Below are positions 2,671-53,806 of a stretch of DNA of 64,000 bases, one piece after another. Both the position numbers and the translations under genes were made by a program. The notes beneath the pieces are model-generated. The model had not been told where the DNA came from and did no database searches. It saw nothing but the letters and a program-made list of their open reading frames with translations. Source of the stretch: an uncultured Enterobacteriaceae bacterium (GTDB lineage Bacteria > Myxococcota_A > UBA9042); contig CAZLMW010000025.1 of the NCBI GenBank assembly GCA_964560875.1, forward strand, positions 812 to 64,811. Reading direction: 5' to 3'. The first letter of the stretch is position 1. The number at the start of each line of letters is the position of its first letter.

Positions 2671-4032
2671 TCAGATGATCTCGAAGTAGCGCTTCAGCTC
2701 CCAATCGCTGACGTGCTTGCGGAACTCGCGCGCTTCCCACTCGCGGGTGGCGGCGAAGTGGTCGATGAACGCATCACCGAAAAGGGCGCGGGCAGCGTCG
2801 CTGGCCTTGAGTCGTCGCGCTGCGTCCCAAAGAGTGCGCGGCAAAGCCTGGTGGGCCGGGTGTCCGCCGTCGTACGCGTTGCCGACGACCATGGGATCGG
2901 GTTCGAGCTTATTTTCGATACCCCACAGCCCCGAACCGAGCGCAGCGGCGAGCCCAAGGTAGGGATTGCCGTCGGCGGCTGCGACCCGGTACTCGACGCG
3001 CTGTGAACTCGGACTGCCCCCGATCACGCGCAATGCGCAGGTGCGATTCTCAACGCCCCAGGTCGCGTCGGTCGGCGCCCAGAACCCGGGAACCAGCCGG
3101 CGATAGGAGTTGACTGTAGGCGCGACCATCGCGAGCAGCTCGGGCATCAGCGCCTGCTGGCCAGCAAGGAAGTGCCGCATCGTGTCCGACATGCCGTGAT
3201 CGGCCGCGTCGTCGTGGAACACACTCTTGCCATCGCCGTCGACCAGCGACATGTGGATATGGCCACTCTGACCGGGGTAATCGGTCGACCAGCGCGCCAT
3301 GAAGGTCGCCATCAGGTCGTTTTTCTGCGCGACGATCTTGGTGAACGTCTTGAACAGCGCCGCCTTGTCCGCCGCTGACACGACATCGCCGACGGTGATC
3401 GCCGCCTCCAGCACGCCGGGTCCGGTTTCGGTGTGCAGGCCCTCGATGGGGATGTCCATCGCCTCCATCACGCCGAGCAGCTGGTGATAAAAGCCTGCGT
3501 GCACGGAGTTTCGCAGCACCGAGTAGCCGAAGTTGCCGGGGGTCCACGGCTCCAGGTCGCGCCAGCCCTTCTGTTCGGCGCTGCGGGGCGTCTCGTTGAA
3601 GAGGAAGAACTCGTACTCGCAGGCCGCGTTGCAGGCATACCCGTGCCCGGCCGCGCGCTCGACGACCCGGCGCAACGTTGCGCGTGGACAAACGGCTTCG
3701 GCCCCCTCGGCGAACTCCCCGAGGAACAGCAGCATGTCGCCCTCGTAAGGAAGCTCACGGCATGAGTCGGGAAGCATCCGCACAGGCGCGTCGGGGTAGC
3801 CGGTGTGCCAGCCGGTGTACGTGACGTTGTCATAGAGCTGGTCGTCGCTGTCCCACCCGAGCACGACGTCGCAAAAGCCAAATCCCTTGTCGAGGGCGGC
3901 GGCGAACTTGGCCGCGGACATGTATTTGCCCCGCAGAATCCCGTCGATGTCGAAGACGCCGACTTTGACGTGGGAGAGCTCGCGGTCGTTGATCAGGCGC
4001 AGCGCATCGGCGGCGCTCAGTTGCGTGGTCAT
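2671..4032 (-). CDS. Glutamine synthetase-like protein, probable gamma-glutamyl-amine synthetase (PuuA/GlnA4 type)
   Basis: GS catalytic motifs EYEF, HTETGPG.LE, GQSGHIHMS and RVEYR. The flap reads GFWAP rather than the GYEAP of true GS. It lies directly upstream of the ALDH and Fe-ADH genes. Confidence 0.92.
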   Translation of the reverse strand: MTTQLSAADALRLINDRELSHVKVGVFDIDGILRGKYMSAAKFAAALDKGFGFCDVVLGWDSDDQLYDNVTYTGWHTGYPDAPVRMLPDSCRELPYEGDMLLFLGEFAEGAEAVCPRATLRRVVERAAGHGYACNAACEYEFFLFNETPRSAEQKGWRDLEPWTPGNFGYSVLRNSVHAGFYHQLLGVMEAMDIPIEGLHTETGPGVLEAAITVGDVVSAADKAALFKTFTKIVAQKNDLMATFMARWSTDYPGQSGHIHMSLVDGDGKSVFHDDAADHGMSDTMRHFLAGQQALMPELLAMVAPTVNSYRRLVPGFWAPTDATWGVENRTCALRVIGGSPSSQRVEYRVAAADGNPYLGLAAALGSGLWGIENKLEPDPMVVGNAYDGGHPAHQALPRTLWDAARRLKASDAARALFGDAFIDHFAATREWEAREFRKHVSDWELKRYFEII

Positions 4033-48082: not shown

Positions 48083-49135
48083 TTGAAGCTTTCAAGGTTA
48101 TTGCGGTTTTCTTCGTCGTACGCGGCGGGCCACGAGCTCCGCGGGGTTGGGTTGAACCTGACTCGGCGGTGCAACCTGTCGTGCAGCTACTGCCGCATTG
48201 TCGACAACAGCAAGGCCAAGGCGCGACGCGAACTGTCGGTGGCCCAGTGGCGCGATGTCATCGATCGGTTTGTGAAGCATAAGCACGCACATTTTATCTT
48301 TACCGGCGGAGAACCAACGCTTTTTCGCGGTCTGCCAGATCTCGTGGACCACGCCTCCAAGCGGGCGCTGACGTCGATGATCTCGCACACGGGGCTGTTG
48401 GATGACGCGCTGTTCGACCGACTGCGAAACCTCGACTTCCTGTGCATGTCCTTCGATACGATGCGCGGCGCGGCCCGTCCAAACGATGCCGATGGCTTGC
48501 AAAAGGACCCAAGCCAGCGCCTCGCCTATCTCGCCGGGAAATGCCGCGCACACAGCATCGAATTGAGCGCGATCGTCACGGTAACTTCTCGAAACGTAGA
48601 TGAAATTGTGCCGATCGCCGAGCTCCTCGATAGCCATGGTGTCGCCGTGCAGATGTCGCTGATTCACTCCGATCCAGGTCACTGGGATTTCCGCAACCAC
48701 ACGCCCGGGCTCGAGTTCCGCACTGCTGAGCAGCACGCCGCACTCTCTGCGCTCGCCGAGACGCTCATCGGGATGCGCAAACGCGGCGTGAACATCGCCG
48801 AATCCGAAGCGTGGCTGCGCGCGATGCCCGAGTACGCCGCCGGACGCTTCGAGATCGACTGTCCCGCCGCCGATCCGTTCGTCACCGTGGACTACGACGG
48901 CCGCATCAAGGCGTGCCACGACACACCGGCATCGGACGTCAGCGCGCTGGAGTTCACCGATATCCGCGCGATGCGTCGCGAGGTCCGGACGACGGTCAAG
49001 CCCGGCTGCAACTGCTTGTACGACTGCTATTTCGAAGCCCGCCGCGGCCCGGCAGCCGATCTTCAGCGGTTCGCGCGACGCATTCGCACAACGGCCATGG
49101 CGTCGGTCCGAGGGGCATCAAGCGCTTTGGGTTGA
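48083..49135 (+). CDS. Radical SAM protein with a C-terminal twitch/SPASM-like Cys cluster
   Basis: CNLSCSYC, FTGGEP and C-terminal CPAA...DG.IKAC...CNCLYDC. Confidence 0.9.
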   Translation: MKLSRLLRFSSSYAAGHELRGVGLNLTRRCNLSCSYCRIVDNSKAKARRELSVAQWRDVIDRFVKHKHAHFIFTGGEPTLFRGLPDLVDHASKRALTSMISHTGLLDDALFDRLRNLDFLCMSFDTMRGAARPNDADGLQKDPSQRLAYLAGKCRAHSIELSAIVTVTSRNVDEIVPIAELLDSHGVAVQMSLIHSDPGHWDFRNHTPGLEFRTAEQHAALSALAETLIGMRKRGVNIAESEAWLRAMPEYAAGRFEIDCPAADPFVTVDYDGRIKACHDTPASDVSALEFTDIRAMRREVRTTVKPGCNCLYDCYFEARRGPAADLQRFARRIRTTAMASVRGASSALG

Positions 49136-49903
49136 CGCGATCACGCGTGCGGCCGCGATGAGCTCTTCTTCGCCGAGTTTCAGGTCAAAGAGCGTGGCGC
49201 GCGTGGCACCCGGGATGTCGCCGAGCATGTCGAGCAGGTCGATGCGGCGCTCCGTGACGAGGGCTCGACCGACCAGGTGCACGAGCTCACTTTCCATCTC
49301 GAGGCGTTTGGGGACCGCGCAGGAGAAATCGCATGCGCTCGGCAGGTCGCCGCAATGCACGCAGAACGTGGAGCAGCTCAGCAGCATGTGTCCGTACGCG
49401 ATCACGTCGCGGGCGATGTTGGCGTCGGCTTCGAGCAGCGAGCGGCGCAGAAATCGGGGACGAACGTACGCGACGGGGGCGATGGCCTGCGCGACCTCGG
49501 CGGCTGCGGGGTTGGCGATGTCGGCGTGAAGCACGTGCGTCTTTGCTGGCGCGCTCTCCGCCAAGCGCGCGAGAAACCCGATGTCGCCGCAGATCCACCC
49601 GTCGACGTCGTCCTGCAGCGCTTCGCAGAGCCGCCACAAAGCCGCCCATTCGCCCTGTTTGACGGTCACCGGTAGCTGCAGAAGAAGCGCTCGACCTGCG
49701 CCGCGAACGTGGTCGCGCAGTCGTCGCCAACCGCCGCGCGCCGCCGCGTCGCCAAGCATGTGTTCGAGGCGAAACGTGCACGACGGATCGCCGATAACCA
49801 CCGTATCGAGCGCGCCGCGGATCGATGCGTCCAGATCAAATCGATCGAGTATCGAGCGGGCGCGCCCGTAATCGAAGTTGAGGGCCTGGTAGGTGAGCTT
49901 CAC
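49118..49903 (-). CDS. ubiV: U32-family Fe-S protein, UbiV-like
   Basis: By-eye alignment to E. coli UbiV: DTVVIGDPSCTFR vs DVIYLGEAVCSKR, YGHMLLSCSTFC vs YGHLPLAYSARC, and SACDFSC vs DECETCC. All four Fe-S Cys positions are present. Orthology is unproven. Confidence 0.72.
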   Translation of the reverse strand: MKLTYQALNFDYGRARSILDRFDLDASIRGALDTVVIGDPSCTFRLEHMLGDAAARGGWRRLRDHVRGAGRALLLQLPVTVKQGEWAALWRLCEALQDDVDGWICGDIGFLARLAESAPAKTHVLHADIANPAAAEVAQAIAPVAYVRPRFLRRSLLEADANIARDVIAYGHMLLSCSTFCVHCGDLPSACDFSCAVPKRLEMESELVHLVGRALVTERRIDLLDMLGDIPGATRATLFDLKLGEEELIAAARVIASTQSA

Positions 49904-49921
49904 GCGGACGTCACATTCGCT

Positions 49922-51022
49922 TCAGGGCAACGGCCCACGCCACATCGGTACGGGATCCTGGCCACTGCCAACACCGCGCGCGGCCGCCGCTTTCAGCTGG
50001 TCGAGCATTGCAGTGCCGCCGCCGGTCTGCAGGCCATTGGCGATCGTGTCGGCCGCGAACCGCAGCGCGTTTTCGACACCCGGGGATGCATGCTGGTCGC
50101 GCGTGTAATCGCCTTCGACGTAGCGTCCGTCGGTCACTTCGAAGCCGAGAGCCTGGTTGTGCAGCGCCCGCGTCCAGCGCTGCGCGACGGTGTATCGCTC
50201 GCCGCGTGTTCGGCACGCCTTGGCGTGGTCGATCGCCTCCCGAAAAACGGAGGTCACGGCGCGAACGAACGCTTCGGACCGGTGCCGACCCTCGATTTTA
50301 AGAACATCGATCCCGTAATGAAGACATAGCGGAAGATAGCGAAGAATCGCGTAGTACTTCATAAATATGGGGCGCTCGCCGAAACGCTGGGCCTCGGTGT
50401 CTGCGGCCTCGTCCACCGCGCTGGGTGAACCTGGTCCGGGCAAGACGCGGACCTTCTGAGCGCAGTGCACGTTGCATGGGCTGCCCGACCAGTGGTCGCC
50501 CATGTAGCAAACAGAATCGCGGGCGTTGCACATGTAGCCGTACGCGAACAGCTCCACTTCCACGCCAGCCTCGGCGATGGCGGCGGCTTCGAGGAGCGTC
50601 GTGTCGCGGTCGAGCACGACACGATGGGCGCCGATCGCGGCGAGATGGCGGGCTGTCTCGCGGTTTGTGCACTGGCCCTGGACCGAAAATGTGATCCGCA
50701 GTCCCGGGTGGTTTTCGGCCGTCCAGCTCAGCAGCCCGGGATCGGCCACGATGACGCCGGTGATGCCCTGCCCTGCCACGCGATCGATGCGCTCTTTGAC
50801 GGCGGCAAGCTCCGCCGGCGGGTACGACGAATTGAACGTCAGCAACACATCGGCGCGTGTCTTGGCCGCGGAAACCAGCGCGCGAAGCTCATCGAGATCG
50901 AGGTTGCGGCACTGGCTGCGTTGATGTGGCAGGTCGGAAAAACCCACGTAGACGGAGTCGGCGCCCGCGTCGATGGCGGCAAGCGCGCTCGATAGGGATC
51001 CTGCAGGCGCGTTCAAGAGCAT
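49922..51022 (-). CDS. ubiU: U32-family Fe-S protein, UbiU-like
   Basis: APAGS...AAIDAGADSVYVG, SVQ, ELFAYGYMC......C, CNVHC and LKIEGRHRS. The C-terminal FREAID...W...L...G resembles UbiU. Alternative start at 51088. Orthology is unproven. Confidence 0.78.
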   Translation of the reverse strand: MLLNAPAGSLSSALAAIDAGADSVYVGFSDLPHQRSQCRNLDLDELRALVSAAKTRADVLLTFNSSYPPAELAAVKERIDRVAGQGITGVIVADPGLLSWTAENHPGLRITFSVQGQCTNRETARHLAAIGAHRVVLDRDTTLLEAAAIAEAGVEVELFAYGYMCNARDSVCYMGDHWSGSPCNVHCAQKVRVLPGPGSPSAVDEAADTEAQRFGERPIFMKYYAILRYLPLCLHYGIDVLKIEGRHRSEAFVRAVTSVFREAIDHAKACRTRGERYTVAQRWTRALHNQALGFEVTDGRYVEGDYTRDQHASPGVENALRFAADTIANGLQTGGGTAMLDQLKAAAARGVGSGQDPVPMWRGPLP

Positions 51023-51184
51023 GGCAGCGTTGGCCTCGGGGTGTGGAAGATCGCCCACCGGCCTATACTGCACGTCCGGTTGCCGCACTCAAAGCGCCAC
51101 CGGCCCGCTCGCCCCACCATTTGAGCCCCGCACGGCGCCGTCCTGGCCGTGGTCGGTCGCTCGCATCGAACCGGCTTTCCCGCC

Positions 51185-51637
51185 ATGACCGACGTCACAC
51201 GCGACCGCAACGCTTACCGATTCCACACCGAGGTGCGCGTGCGTCTCAGCGAGACCGACGCTGTAGGAATCGTCTTCTTCGGCAGCTACTCCACATACAT
51301 GGACGTCGGTCGGATGGACTACCTGGAAAACCTCGGCCTGACGCGGCTGGGTGGGGCGGTTCGTGACCTGATCCCGGGCGCTGTGGTGGCGTCGTCGGCG
51401 CAATTTCACCGGCCGGCTCGCTACAATGATGTGCTGGAGCTGAATGTGCGCGTCTCGCGGCTTGGGACGACCAGCTATACGTTCCACTTTCTCATCGCGA
51501 ACAAACGCTCGGCGGAGACCGTGGCCACCGGGGCGCTGACGCTTGTTTGGCTGGACGACGACTTCAAACCGACGTCGCTCCCCGAGGAATTTCGCGACGC
51601 GATCGTCGGCTTCGAGGGCACCAACATCGACGCCTGA
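51185..51637 (+). CDS. Acyl-CoA thioesterase (4HBT/YbgC hotdog fold)
   Basis: VRVRLSETDAVGIVFFGSY..YMDVGR and FHRPARYND motifs. Confidence 0.92.
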   Translation: MTDVTRDRNAYRFHTEVRVRLSETDAVGIVFFGSYSTYMDVGRMDYLENLGLTRLGGAVRDLIPGAVVASSAQFHRPARYNDVLELNVRVSRLGTTSYTFHFLIANKRSAETVATGALTLVWLDDDFKPTSLPEEFRDAIVGFEGTNIDA

Positions 51638-51643
51638 CGCCGA

Positions 51644-52381
51644 TCAGAAGCCAATGCGGCGCATCACGAATCGCGGCAGCTGCCGGATCACCAACATCAC
51701 GAGGCCCCAAATCGGCGGCGCGTAGACGACCGGTGTGCCCTTGTCGATCGCCTTGAGCACGGTTTTGGCCACGCCCTCGGGTTCTCCCGCGAACGGGGGA
51801 GGCTTCAAGCCAGCGGTCATCGATGTCTTCACGAAGCCAGGCCGCACAGCGACCGTCACGAGTCCGTCGGCTCGGAATTTGTGGTCGAGGCCGTCGAGAT
51901 AATGGGTGAGGCCGGCTTTGGTCGCGCCGTACAAGATGACGGGTTTGCGCGCTCGATCCCCAGCCACAGACGAGAACACGCACAGGGTCCCGCCGCCTCG
52001 TGCCAGCAGCCGCTTACGGATGTGCTCGCACAGGACGATCGTGTTGGTGAAGTTGGCATCGAGTACGTCGCGGGTGCGGTCGGTGTCGTCTTCCAGCGCT
52101 TGCTGGGTGCCGAACTGGGCTGCGGTGATGATGGCGCAATCAAATGTGCCAAGGGCCTCGTCGGCGGCATCGAGCGCGGGCAAGAAGGTCGCGGGATCGG
52201 CGAGATCGCAGGTGCCGATCGCTACCCTTGCGCCGTTGCCGCGCACCCGGAGGTCGGCGGCGCTCTTTTCGAGGTCAGCGGCGTTGCGTCCCAGGAGCAC
52301 GAGATCGTCCCCGCGCTCGGCCATCAAGCGGGCCAACGAACGTCCCATGCCGCGCGTCGCGCCGAGGATCACTGCTTTCAT
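51644..52381 (-). CDS. dprE2: Short-chain dehydrogenase/reductase, DprE2-like
   Basis: ILGATRGMG, SSVAGDRAR, YGATKAG (YxxxK) and RPGFVKTSMT. It lies directly downstream of the DprE1-like gene. Confidence 0.82.
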   Translation of the reverse strand: MKAVILGATRGMGRSLARLMAERGDDLVLLGRNAADLEKSAADLRVRGNGARVAIGTCDLADPATFLPALDAADEALGTFDCAIITAAQFGTQQALEDDTDRTRDVLDANFTNTIVLCEHIRKRLLARGGGTLCVFSSVAGDRARKPVILYGATKAGLTHYLDGLDHKFRADGLVTVAVRPGFVKTSMTAGLKPPPFAGEPEGVAKTVLKAIDKGTPVVYAPPIWGLVMLVIRQLPRFVMRRIGF

Positions 52382-52438
52382 GGTGGGTCTCGATGAGCGT
52401 CATGTTCTGTCGCCCCGATGCGGGACGCAGACCGGTCT

Positions 52439-53806
52439 TCAGGTGGGGTCGCCCAGAAGACGCACACTCTGCGCGCTCCGTATGCGGCGGTCCGGGTCCC
52501 ACTTGTCGCGCACCGCGGCGAACCTTGGCAAGCGGGGCTCCATGGCGGCGAGGTGTTCGGGCCGCGTGAAGCGGTCCTTGGCGAGATAAATGCGGCCGCC
52601 GGTGGCGATGACGGCTTCGTTGAGCTTGTCGACCAGCGCCTGGGTGTCGTCGCGGCACGGGATGTCCAGCGCGATCGACGTGCCGGGCCGGGGAAACGAC
52701 AGGATCCCGTCACCTTCGGGGCCGCAGTCCTTGAGCACGCAGAGAAAAGACGCGCCGCCCAGGCCGGTGAGCACCTCGAGGAACTGGCGAACAGCGCCGA
52801 GGCCAGCGTCGTCGGGGATGACACATTGGAACTGCGTGAAGCCGCGAGGGCCGTACAGCAGGTTCCAGTGCAGGACGCGATCGAGCGGATACCAAAAGGC
52901 TTCCGGGTGCACGATCGCCTTGCGCATGCCGCGGCCGTGCTTGTGGTAGATGAGCCAGTTGAAGAGCCGCATCGTCAGGCCGTTGAGCAACCACGACGGG
53001 GTCTCGAACGGCGCGCGCAGCTGCAAGGGTGGCTTGGGGAAGTGTTTGGGCGCGATTTCCCTGGCCGCCCACCGACCGCGAAAGAGGATGCCGCGGCCCA
53101 TGTTCTCGCCGCGTTGCAGGCAGTCGATCCAGCCCATCGTCATCGGCCAATTGGCGCTCGCATCCTTCAACCCGGCGATGAAGTCGTCGAAGTTGTCGAA
53201 ACGCTCCGTCTCCTGTTCGACCCACGGGCTGGTCACGCGATGCATCCGAAAGCTGACCTCGAGGATATGGCCAGTGAGCCCCATGCCGCCGATCGTGGCG
53301 CGAAAGAGCTCGCCTTCCTCATCCCGCGAGCACCAGATCAGGCCGCCGTTGGGGACGCGGAGCAGCAGGCGTGTCACGTGGGCGCCGAAACAGCCGTTGA
53401 CGTGGTGATTCTTGCCGTGGACATCCGCCGCGACCATGCCGCCGACCGTCACGAACGCGGTGCCGGGCGACACGGGTACGAACCAGTTGCGCGGCAGGAA
53501 GATGCGGTTGAGCTCGCGCAGCGAAAGGCCGGCTTCGACGTGGATGTCGCCGGTTTGCTCATTGAACGCGAGGATCCGATCGGCAAGGCGTGTGCCGGCG
53601 ACGTCCAGCGTGCCGACGGGCGGCAAAGACGAGTCGCCGTACGAGCGACCGAGACCGCGCGTGAGGATCATCCCATCGGTCAACGAGCCGAGGTCTTCGC
53701 CAACCAGCTCGCGTCCGGGCCCGAAAATGCGGCCCCAGCCGGCGAGCTGTGGAACGTCGGTGGATTTGGGCGCCGAGAGCGCGCTGTCGGTAGGAGATGC
53801 GCTCAC
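52439..53806 (-). CDS. dprE1: FAD-binding oxidoreductase, DprE1-like (decaprenylphosphoryl-ribose 2'-oxidase family)
   Basis: RGLGRSYGD, VSPGT.FVTVGG..A.DVHGKNHH, GGMGLTG, YGPRGFTQFQ, LSFP and GRIYLAKD. Start GTG 53806 inferred. Confidence 0.88.
   Translation of the reverse strand: MSASPTDSALSAPKSTDVPQLAGWGRIFGPGRELVGEDLGSLTDGMILTRGLGRSYGDSSLPPVGTLDVAGTRLADRILAFNEQTGDIHVEAGLSLRELNRIFLPRNWFVPVSPGTAFVTVGGMVAADVHGKNHHVNGCFGAHVTRLLLRVPNGGLIWCSRDEEGELFRATIGGMGLTGHILEVSFRMHRVTSPWVEQETERFDNFDDFIAGLKDASANWPMTMGWIDCLQRGENMGRGILFRGRWAAREIAPKHFPKPPLQLRAPFETPSWLLNGLTMRLFNWLIYHKHGRGMRKAIVHPEAFWYPLDRVLHWNLLYGPRGFTQFQCVIPDDAGLGAVRQFLEVLTGLGGASFLCVLKDCGPEGDGILSFPRPGTSIALDIPCRDDTQALVDKLNEAVIATGGRIYLAKDRFTRPEHLAAMEPRLPRFAAVRDKWDPDRRIRSAQSVRLLGDPT

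Follow-up and report, generated by a model that had tools for sequence, protein, structure and literature searches.

A UbiU/UbiV-like pair of U32 genes and a convergent radical SAM gene form a conserved triad in a myxobacterium-like genome

Introduction

What do a UbiU-like and a UbiV-like protein do in a bacterium that is expected to use menaquinone? The question is raised by a 64,000-nucleotide stretch of DNA (the window; 65% G+C) from an uncultured bacterium of the Myxococcota_A lineage UBA9042 (GenBank assembly GCA_964560875.1, contig CAZLMW010000025.1, positions 812 to 64,811). Two adjacent minus-strand genes of the window, here called U32-A and the partner, encode a large UbiU-like and a small UbiV-like protein of the U32 family, and a radical S-adenosylmethionine (SAM) gene converges on them. 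An earlier reading of these letters, made without database searches (the sequence-only reading), had proposed that the pair hydroxylates something other than ubiquinone.

The U32 proteins characterized as oxidases all hydroxylate their substrates without O2, taking the oxygen from prephenate (PMC10990095, PMC6747719, PMC6599085, PMC5727448, PMC11574389). In the chemistry proposed for them, the substrate is oxidized and the resulting intermediate is quenched by hydroxide from prephenate (PMC10990095). The known substrates are restricted to ubiquinone precursors, tRNA U34, and rRNA C2501 (PMC10990095, PMC11574389). UbiU-UbiV (YhbU/YhbV in Escherichia coli), the ubiquinone ring hydroxylase of this group, depends on prephenate and not on O2 (Pelosi 2019, PMC6747719; PMC10990095), and its two subunits form a heterodimer (PMC6747719). 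TrhP (YegQ) and the pair TrhP1/TrhP2 (YrrO/YrrN) are responsible for C5-hydroxylation of tRNA U34, with TrhP1 and TrhP2 being tandem paralogues that are both needed (PMC6599085), and RlhA (YdcP) is responsible for hydroxylation of 23S rRNA C2501 (PMC5727448).

The large subunit U32-A

The longest open reading frame (ORF) of U32-A spans 49922-51088 (388 amino acids) and starts with a GTG at 51088. Gene callers and all homologues place the start at the ATG at 51022, which gives a protein of 366 amino acids (Table 1). Peptidase_U32 (PF01136; E 3e-38, 132 bits) is the only Pfam domain detected. The best-scoring NCBIfam model is UbiU (NF047963; 151 bits, cut-off 440), followed by TrhP (NF011996; 87 bits, cut-off 534), and both scores fall below the cut-off. 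A profile of the U32-A family aligned in hhalign with residues 1-326 of the 331 residues of E. coli UbiU (probability 99.9, E 4e-36). In pairwise BLASTP, U32-A is 28% identical to UbiU (E 5e-29), a stronger match than those to RlhA (E 3e-18) and TrhP (E 2e-16).

When 5.8 billion proteins were searched by word index with U32-A alone, ~15 proteins of 42-54% identity were found, after which scores dropped from 278 to 119 bits. By profile, the family comprises ~18 proteins, each scoring at least 463 bits. The next matches, at 199 bits or less, are UbiU-like proteins (330-350 amino acids) mixed with proteins of ~410 amino acids that combine U32 with U32_C. In place of YrrO/YrrN from Bacillus subtilis, the comparison contained two Bacillaceae proteins of the U32 plus U32_C type (P0129 and P0123), which have the canonical cysteine motif and score 173-175 bits against the U32-A profile, as compared with at least 463 bits for the family. 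A search of the PDB with the U32-A profile gave a sole match, 5d88 (E 8e-4), which to our knowledge is the only solved U32 structure.

The cysteine motif of UbiU is CX6CX16CX38C (C169, C176, C193, and C232) and that of UbiV CXnCX12CX3C, while most other U32 proteins have CX6CX15CX3/4C (PMC6747719). In U32-A, the cysteines are spaced as CX6CX10CX3C (C165-x6-C172-x10-C183-x3-C187); C165, C172, and C183 are present in all 18 family members, and C187 in 17 of the 18. In a MAFFT alignment with UbiU, TrhP, RlhA, and their relatives, C187 corresponds to the shared third cysteine (C193 in both UbiU and TrhP). C183 sits within an S-P-N motif at which no other aligned group has a cysteine, the canonical fourth site (C197 of TrhP) is a valine in the U32-A of the window, and no U32-A cysteine is aligned with C232 of UbiU. 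If this loop is aligned correctly, the fourth cluster ligand would now be at a third position, specific to the family; otherwise, the motif would be the canonical one, its loop shortened by five residues. Under both alignments, the predicted cluster-binding motif differs from the arrangement in UbiU, and as aligned it constitutes a third variant, following neither the UbiU nor the canonical pattern. The sequence-only reading had given the right spacing for these cysteines and had located both ORFs correctly on the minus strand, but the motif is not simply like that of TrhP and RlhA, to which it had likened the spacing, as C183 is specific to the family and the canonical fourth position is not a cysteine.

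In the U32 phylogeny that had been proposed as a check, U32-A shares a side of the tree with UbiU but belongs to none of the UbiU, TrhP, and RlhA clades. In this unrooted maximum-likelihood tree (LG+C20 posterior mean site frequency model, 48 rows), the U32-A family is recovered with support of 100/100 on a long stem, the UbiU clade with 100/99, and a group of TrhP and RlhA-like proteins with 97/89; quick trees gave the same grouping. Because the fully supported family lies outside every characterized clade, we consider U32-A to be a subfamily of its own.

The small UbiV-like partner

The partner (261 amino acids) starts 18 nucleotides after the stop codon of U32-A. No Pfam domain was detected in it. 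The only U32- or UbiV-type NCBIfam model matched was PRK15447 (12 bits, E 0.099, cut-off 283), and the UbiV model NF047965 (cut-off 275 bits) gave no match. A profile built from 17 partner sequences aligned in hhalign with E. coli UbiV over 211 columns (probability 83.5, E 8e-6), with C42, C181, C191, and C195 of the partner corresponding to C39, C180, C193, and C197 of UbiV. All four cysteines of this motif, CXnCX9CX3C, are invariant in 17 of 17 sequences; the spacer between the second and third is nine residues in the window and longer in a few relatives. The same profile matched the U32-A family (probability 91.8, E 7e-7) and, in its N-terminal half only, UbiU (probability 44.7).

The partner family consists of nine clusters at E <1e-30 among 1.84 billion representatives. 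Its next relatives are short proteins of ~270 amino acids whose NCBIfam matches are to UbiV models only, and farther relatives are two-domain U32 proteins of ~800 amino acids, both halves of which are matched by the partner profile. The AlphaFold2 model of the partner (predicted local distance difference test score 92) shows a TIM barrel and a C-terminal beta domain, and 5d88 matched it with a Z of 13.6 in a fold search. In the ESM Atlas, 19 of the 30 clusters nearest to the partner by sequence features are U32 proteins, as are the nearest structural clusters (TM-scores 0.73-0.76). A sequence search of the PDB with the partner profile gave chance matches only (E of at least 1). On the strength of the profile matches, the partner is classed as a divergent U32 protein closest to UbiV.

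A radical SAM gene completes a conserved triad

The radical SAM gene lies tail to tail with the partner gene, and the 3' ends of the two overlap by 18 nucleotides. The encoded protein of 350 amino acids has a CX3CX2C core (C30, C34, and C37), a second element (C260-x12-G273-x4-C278) that fits the CX9-15GX4C pattern of SPASM/twitch proteins, and a C-terminal C309-x-C311-x3-C315; these cysteines are invariant in six of six sequences. The Pfam SPASM model itself gave no match in the protein. No NCBIfam equivalog was assigned: AhbC, PqqE, MoaA, and NirJ, the best matches, score 45-60 bits, and with viperin and peptide maturases the range is 35-60 bits, whereas the cut-offs are 180-650. SkfB, PqqE, anSME, and PapB are among the best matches in the PDB and NCBIfam, and the searches of the PDB and the Atlas returned nothing specific on the function of the protein.

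The order U32-A, partner, convergent radical SAM gene is kept in all eight of the genomes or contigs in which it could be assessed, including the window (Table 1). At the other loci, U32-A is 43-46%, the partner 35-38%, and the radical SAM protein 48-53% identical to its counterpart in the window. U32-A and the partner overlap by 1 to 4 nucleotides at two of the loci (L001 and L005), and at L005 a methyltransferase gene adjoins the radical SAM gene. Because the gene order has been kept across considerable divergence while the flanking genes differ, the triad is taken to be a functional unit. The sequence-only reading had treated the U32 pair as the unit; the two genes are indeed a UbiU-like and UbiV-like pair, but the conserved unit has three genes, the convergent radical SAM gene being the third.

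Relatives of the radical SAM protein (36-45% identity) occur in four other genomes of the phylum, where they have no U32 neighbor. There, they follow a class I SAM methyltransferase gene to which they are translationally coupled, near genes for Bac_transf or GT-C glycosyltransferases (Table 1). This methyltransferase and glycan context is suggestive only as a clue to the function of the radical SAM protein. One of the genomes of the phylum (G018) has two tandem copies of such a relative, and another (G036) has a relative with a single in-frame TGA, which could be a sequencing error, a pseudogene, or a selenocysteine codon.

Table 1. Genes and loci of the triad, its relatives, and its surroundings. 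Positions without a locus or genome label are those of the window; L and G labels denote loci and genomes in our collection, and G000 is the host assembly.
Feature	Location	Strand	Evidence or remark
U32-A (P0003), large UbiU-like U32 subunit, 366 aa	49922..51022	-	PF01136, hhalign vs UbiU, trees
Partner (P0002), small UbiV-like U32 subunit, 261 aa	49118..49903	-	Profile vs UbiV and U32-A, AlphaFold2 fold
SPASM/twitch-type radical SAM gene, 350 aa	48083..49135	+	Pfam Radical_SAM and Fer4_12, cysteine motifs
Triad loci	Window, L001/L002, L003/L004, L005, L008, L026, L027, G402		L008, Myxococcota metagenome-assembled genome (MAG); G402, Polyangia MAG, triad split over two contig ends
Radical SAM relative with methyltransferase	L058 7894-9764	-
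Radical SAM relative with methyltransferase	L060 1948-3695	+
Radical SAM relative with methyltransferase	L059 5234-8184	-
Radical SAM relative with methyltransferase	L061 7965-9986	+
Radical SAM relative with in-frame TGA	G036:C304:2673-3698 (L055/L060)
MarR gene	L001 12106-12618	-
MarR gene	L003 11434-11946	-
MarR gene	L008 about 3394-3942	-
4HBT-type hotdog thioesterase	51185..51637	+	Pfam 4HBT and 4HBT_2; divergent from U32-A
ORF of 132 aa, rejected	51089-51487	-
DprE2-like and DprE1-like genes	51644-53806	-
Decaprenyl-phosphate phosphoribosyltransferase homologue	G000:C57:35562-35966
Cysteine-rich lipoprotein, 65 Cys in 502 aa	53835-55343	-
Cysteine-rich lipoprotein, 104 Cys in 885 aa	L008 4120-6774	+	DUF4215 repeats
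Lipoprotein with MopE motif, 749 aa (L001/L003)	L001 12773-15022	+

Quinone and RNA pathways of the host

The host assembly is a MAG of 8.15 Mb in 256 contigs. The expectation that the host relies on menaquinone was borne out by its genes, as MenD (342 bits, above the cut-off) is encoded next to MenA on contig C4. Four matches to the UbiA superfamily were found: CtaB (heme O synthase), MenA, a decaprenyl-phosphate phosphoribosyltransferase, and one unassigned prenyltransferase. No UbiA (4-hydroxybenzoate prenyltransferase) scored above the curated cut-off in this assembly, which is 94.6% complete. UbiG was not found in it (best score 54 bits, cut-off 103), and neither were MqnA, the TrhO N-domain, or CmoB. 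The genome search for ubi genes thus saw no complete ubiquinone pathway, the finding that the sequence-only reading had named as contrary to its proposal. That reading had also remarked that no ubiT or other ubi gene adjoins the pair. We found no SCP2/UbiT protein next to the pair on its contig (C25), the three SCP2 matches of the assembly being on contigs C54, C1, and C222, and none in the set of related triad loci examined, L001-L005. By its genes, the host thus seems to use the classical menaquinone pathway; neither a ubiquinone pathway nor a pathway to 5-oxyacetyluridine (cmo5U) was detected in it.

The sole PF01136 match in the assembly is U32-A itself. A fragment of the host RpoB is 68-69% identical to the RpoB of two triad-bearing Myxococcota MAGs and 59% identical to that of E. 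coli, which is consistent with placement in the Myxococcota.

Distribution of the triad

U32-A was found in none of 400 other sampled genomes of the phylum (E up to 1e-40), of which 28 belong to the same family as the host, and a pattern scan of ~185,000 species representatives found it in only two. Many genomes of the phylum (80 of 201) do encode U32 proteins of some kind. A long U32 protein with two domains (open frames of ~870-930 amino acids) is carried by 14 of 17 relatives from the same family, and the host assembly is without one. In these long proteins (G009, G052, G058, and others; loci L039-L045), the N-terminal U32 domain gives a strong match and the second a weak one. In the Polyangia MAG G402, the triad occurs together with long-type or other U32 genes, because of which a replacement of the long U32 protein by the pair cannot be claimed. 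Because U32-A is rare and patchy, its function is likely to be accessory rather than core.

Neighboring genes

In one sub-clade of the triad loci, a conserved MarR-family gene lies directly upstream of the radical SAM gene, in the same orientation; a MarR gene heads the radical SAM operon at five loci (L001, L003, L008, L026, and L027). No MarR gene is present beside the radical SAM gene in the window or at L005.

A 4HBT-type thioesterase gene is divergent from U32-A in the window, and at L001, L003, L026, and L027 the distance between the triad and a 4HBT gene is ~5 kb. We considered it as a fourth gene of the module and found the case weak, as the 29% identity among these proteins is no better than that to a paralogue beside the men genes. 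This paralogue, the only one in the host genome (27% identity), adjoins menD and menA on contig C4 and may be the 1,4-dihydroxy-2-naphthoyl-CoA thioesterase. An ORF of 132 amino acids that appeared to be coupled to U32-A was rejected: it is an antisense frame of the 4HBT gene and has no homologue at related loci.

Envelope-glycan genes occur near several triads. In the window, the gene directly upstream encodes a short-chain dehydrogenase/reductase (SDR) that reaches 151 bits with the DprE2 model, and a DprE1-like gene is also present there. A homologue of decaprenyl-phosphate phosphoribosyltransferase is encoded elsewhere in the host assembly, and the polyprenyl-phospho-arabinose route may be complete in this diderm. 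Genes for GT2 and membrane proteins are directly upstream at L005, and a GtrA gene is present at L001. A comparison of the triad flanks by tblastx was noisy, and its sole genuine extra match, an SDR at L005, is in an unrelated context.

Genes for cysteine-rich lipoproteins are no more than a few kilobases away from the triad in the window, at L008, and at L001/L003 (Table 1), and no cysteine-rich neighbor is present at L005. Because cysteine-rich repeat proteins are abundant in these genomes, this proximity may be due to chance. A search for precursors of peptides that are made on the ribosome and modified after translation covered 143 small ORFs at six loci, all lying no farther than 1.5 kb from the triad, and none was conserved except for antisense frames of the MarR gene.

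Discussion

We put a probability of roughly 0.6 on the reading that U32-A and the partner form a heterodimeric Fe-S U32 oxidase that works together with the radical SAM enzyme on a non-quinone substrate, as a conserved accessory module. The four conserved cysteines of each subunit would hold one [4Fe-4S] cluster, and the large UbiU-like and the small UbiV-like subunit would associate as UbiU and UbiV do. By analogy with UbiU-UbiV, TrhP, and RlhA, the pair would most likely oxidize or hydroxylate its substrate without O2, probably in dependence on prephenate, and a radical step before or after this, on the same substrate, would fall to the radical SAM enzyme. This substrate would not be ubiquinone and probably not a housekeeping RNA; a target other than ubiquinone is probable because the host appears to use menaquinone, the U32 clade is distinct, and the radical SAM gene is always present. 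In a more specific and speculative version, which we regard as improbable, the substrate would be activated by the radical SAM enzyme, for instance through cross-linking or the abstraction of a hydrogen, and would then receive the oxygen of prephenate from the U32 heterodimer, making the triad a new O2-free hydroxylation system.

Several observations weigh against this proposal. The partner had been said to align with UbiV, including all four cysteine ligands; the alignment stands at the profile level with four of four cysteines but not in pairwise BLASTP (E 0.012). The matches of the partner model in Foldseek and VIA-align are generic TIM barrels, with which 5d88 is tied, so that the fold is consistent with U32 but not discriminating. 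The radical SAM gene is convergent and not co-transcribed with the pair. As the host genome is a MAG in 256 contigs and 94.6% complete, the missing ubi genes are not proven absent. The guess at the substrate is weak because the flanking genes vary among loci. Direct in vitro hydroxylase activity has been reported for no U32 protein (PMC10990095). The biochemical side of the proposal is built on homology and linkage: from family membership and from the neighborhood of the genes, we infer that the two proteins form a heterodimer, that they carry Fe-S clusters and act as a hydroxylase, and to which class their substrate belongs.

The closest known system is UbiU-UbiV, and the pair could be a true but divergent version of it that serves, without O2, in the synthesis of ubiquinone or the hydroxylation of another prenylated quinone, the other ubi genes and ubiT having been left unassembled or replaced. 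As in UbiU-UbiV, a U32 protein of ~330-360 amino acids is followed in tandem by a shorter, divergent one; UbiU is the best NCBIfam and pairwise match of U32-A, aligns with it from end to end, and shares its side of the tree; and the partner has the cysteine layout of UbiV, in which the first cysteine is far upstream, outside the U32 domain (C42, as compared with C39 of UbiV), and is followed by C...C-x3-C. The unclassified UbiA-like prenyltransferase and the three SCP2 proteins elsewhere in the host genome would also fit. Yet the scores are far under both equivalog cut-offs (151 vs 440 and 12 vs 283 bits), the CX6CX16CX38C motif of UbiU is not kept, the spacer of the partner is nine residues rather than the 12 of UbiV, and U32-A branches outside the well-supported UbiU clade. 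The host, which is myxobacterium-like and not an alpha-, beta-, or gammaproteobacterium, has MenA and MenD, no UbiA or UbiG found over the cut-off, and no ubiT by the pair, and the constant radical SAM companion is foreign to UbiUVT. We therefore judge this explanation to be quite unlikely, and hardly more weight can be given to a two-subunit RNA hydroxylase, comparable to TrhP1/TrhP2 or RlhA, whose radical SAM neighbor would add a further RNA modification; this, too, is unlikely. Two of the three characterized U32 functions act on RNA, and TrhP1/TrhP2 are likewise tandem U32 paralogues (PMC6599085). RlhA similarly has two U32-like domains, but fused on one chain of 653 amino acids. The first two cysteines of TrhP and the shared third align with those of U32-A, and the host has no other U32 protein, while 14 of 17 relatives have the long two-domain one. 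On the other hand, U32-A falls outside the TrhP and RlhA groups, is without the C-terminal PF16325 (U32_C) and the fourth cysteine of TrhP, differs from the CX6CX15CX3C motif of RlhA, and was found in none of the 400 sampled genomes. CmoB and TrhO were not found in the host; a MarR gene heads the radical SAM operon at five loci, which is unusual for RNA-modification genes; and the presence in G402 of the triad together with other U32 genes leaves no clean replacement pattern.

A real, if minority, possibility is that the triad serves to tailor a peptide of ribosomal origin or a cysteine-rich lipoprotein that is secreted, the radical SAM enzyme introducing cross-links and the U32 pair hydroxylating an aromatic residue without O2. 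Peptides are the typical targets of SPASM/twitch radical SAM enzymes. The radical SAM protein has the CX3CX2C core, the CX12GX4C element, and the C-terminal C-x-C-x3-C in common with PqqE, AhbC/AhbD, NirJ, MoaA, SkfB, and anSME; SkfB, PqqE, anSME, and PapB are among its best matches; and cysteine-rich lipoproteins are encoded near the triad in the window, at L008, and at L001/L003. Unlike these named enzymes, it scores an order of magnitude below every equivalog cut-off, and we know of none of them (PqqE, AhbC/AhbD, NirJ, MoaA, SkfB, or anSME) that pairs with U32 proteins. No small ORF is conserved within 1.5 kb of the triad across loci, the 3' end of the radical SAM gene abuts the partner gene and leaves no room for a downstream precursor, and the lipoproteins, missing at L005 and abundant in these genomes, may be near the triad by chance. 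By comparison, it is very improbable that the two U32 proteins are peptidases, or that the partner is an inactive remnant without a joint function. The historical 'collagenase' annotation of the family suggests peptidases, and one database source labels the homologues 'putative protease'. Against this, the four cysteines are invariant or nearly so in each family, both genes and their adjacency are kept across proteins only about 36-54% identical, and cysteine-bearing U32 proteins are now assigned to the Fe-S oxidases (PMC6747719, PMC11574389).

Returning to the proposed heterodimeric oxidase, we consider an envelope-linked, lipid, or aromatic small molecule to be the first candidate for its substrate, at somewhat short of even odds. 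A cysteine-rich peptide or protein is a tentative alternative, and RNA has a slight chance only.

The triad is a real, conserved module that is undescribed in the searchable literature, in which we found no paper combining U32, UbiV, and a radical SAM module. No enzymes other than U32 oxidases are known to draw oxygen from an organic donor, prephenate, and most U32 subfamilies are uncharacterized (PMC10990095, PMC11574389). If the radical SAM enzyme does prepare a substrate for prephenate-derived oxygen, U32 chemistry would no longer be confined to the rings of quinones and nucleobases but would reach a residue of a protein, a polyprenyl-linked glycan, or a lipid. The triad would thus offer a compact three-gene system for a fourth class of U32 substrate and for the interplay of radical SAM and U32 enzymes. 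With its apparently different fourth ligand, U32-A may also serve as a natural variant that shows which cysteine positions the Fe-S cluster tolerates.

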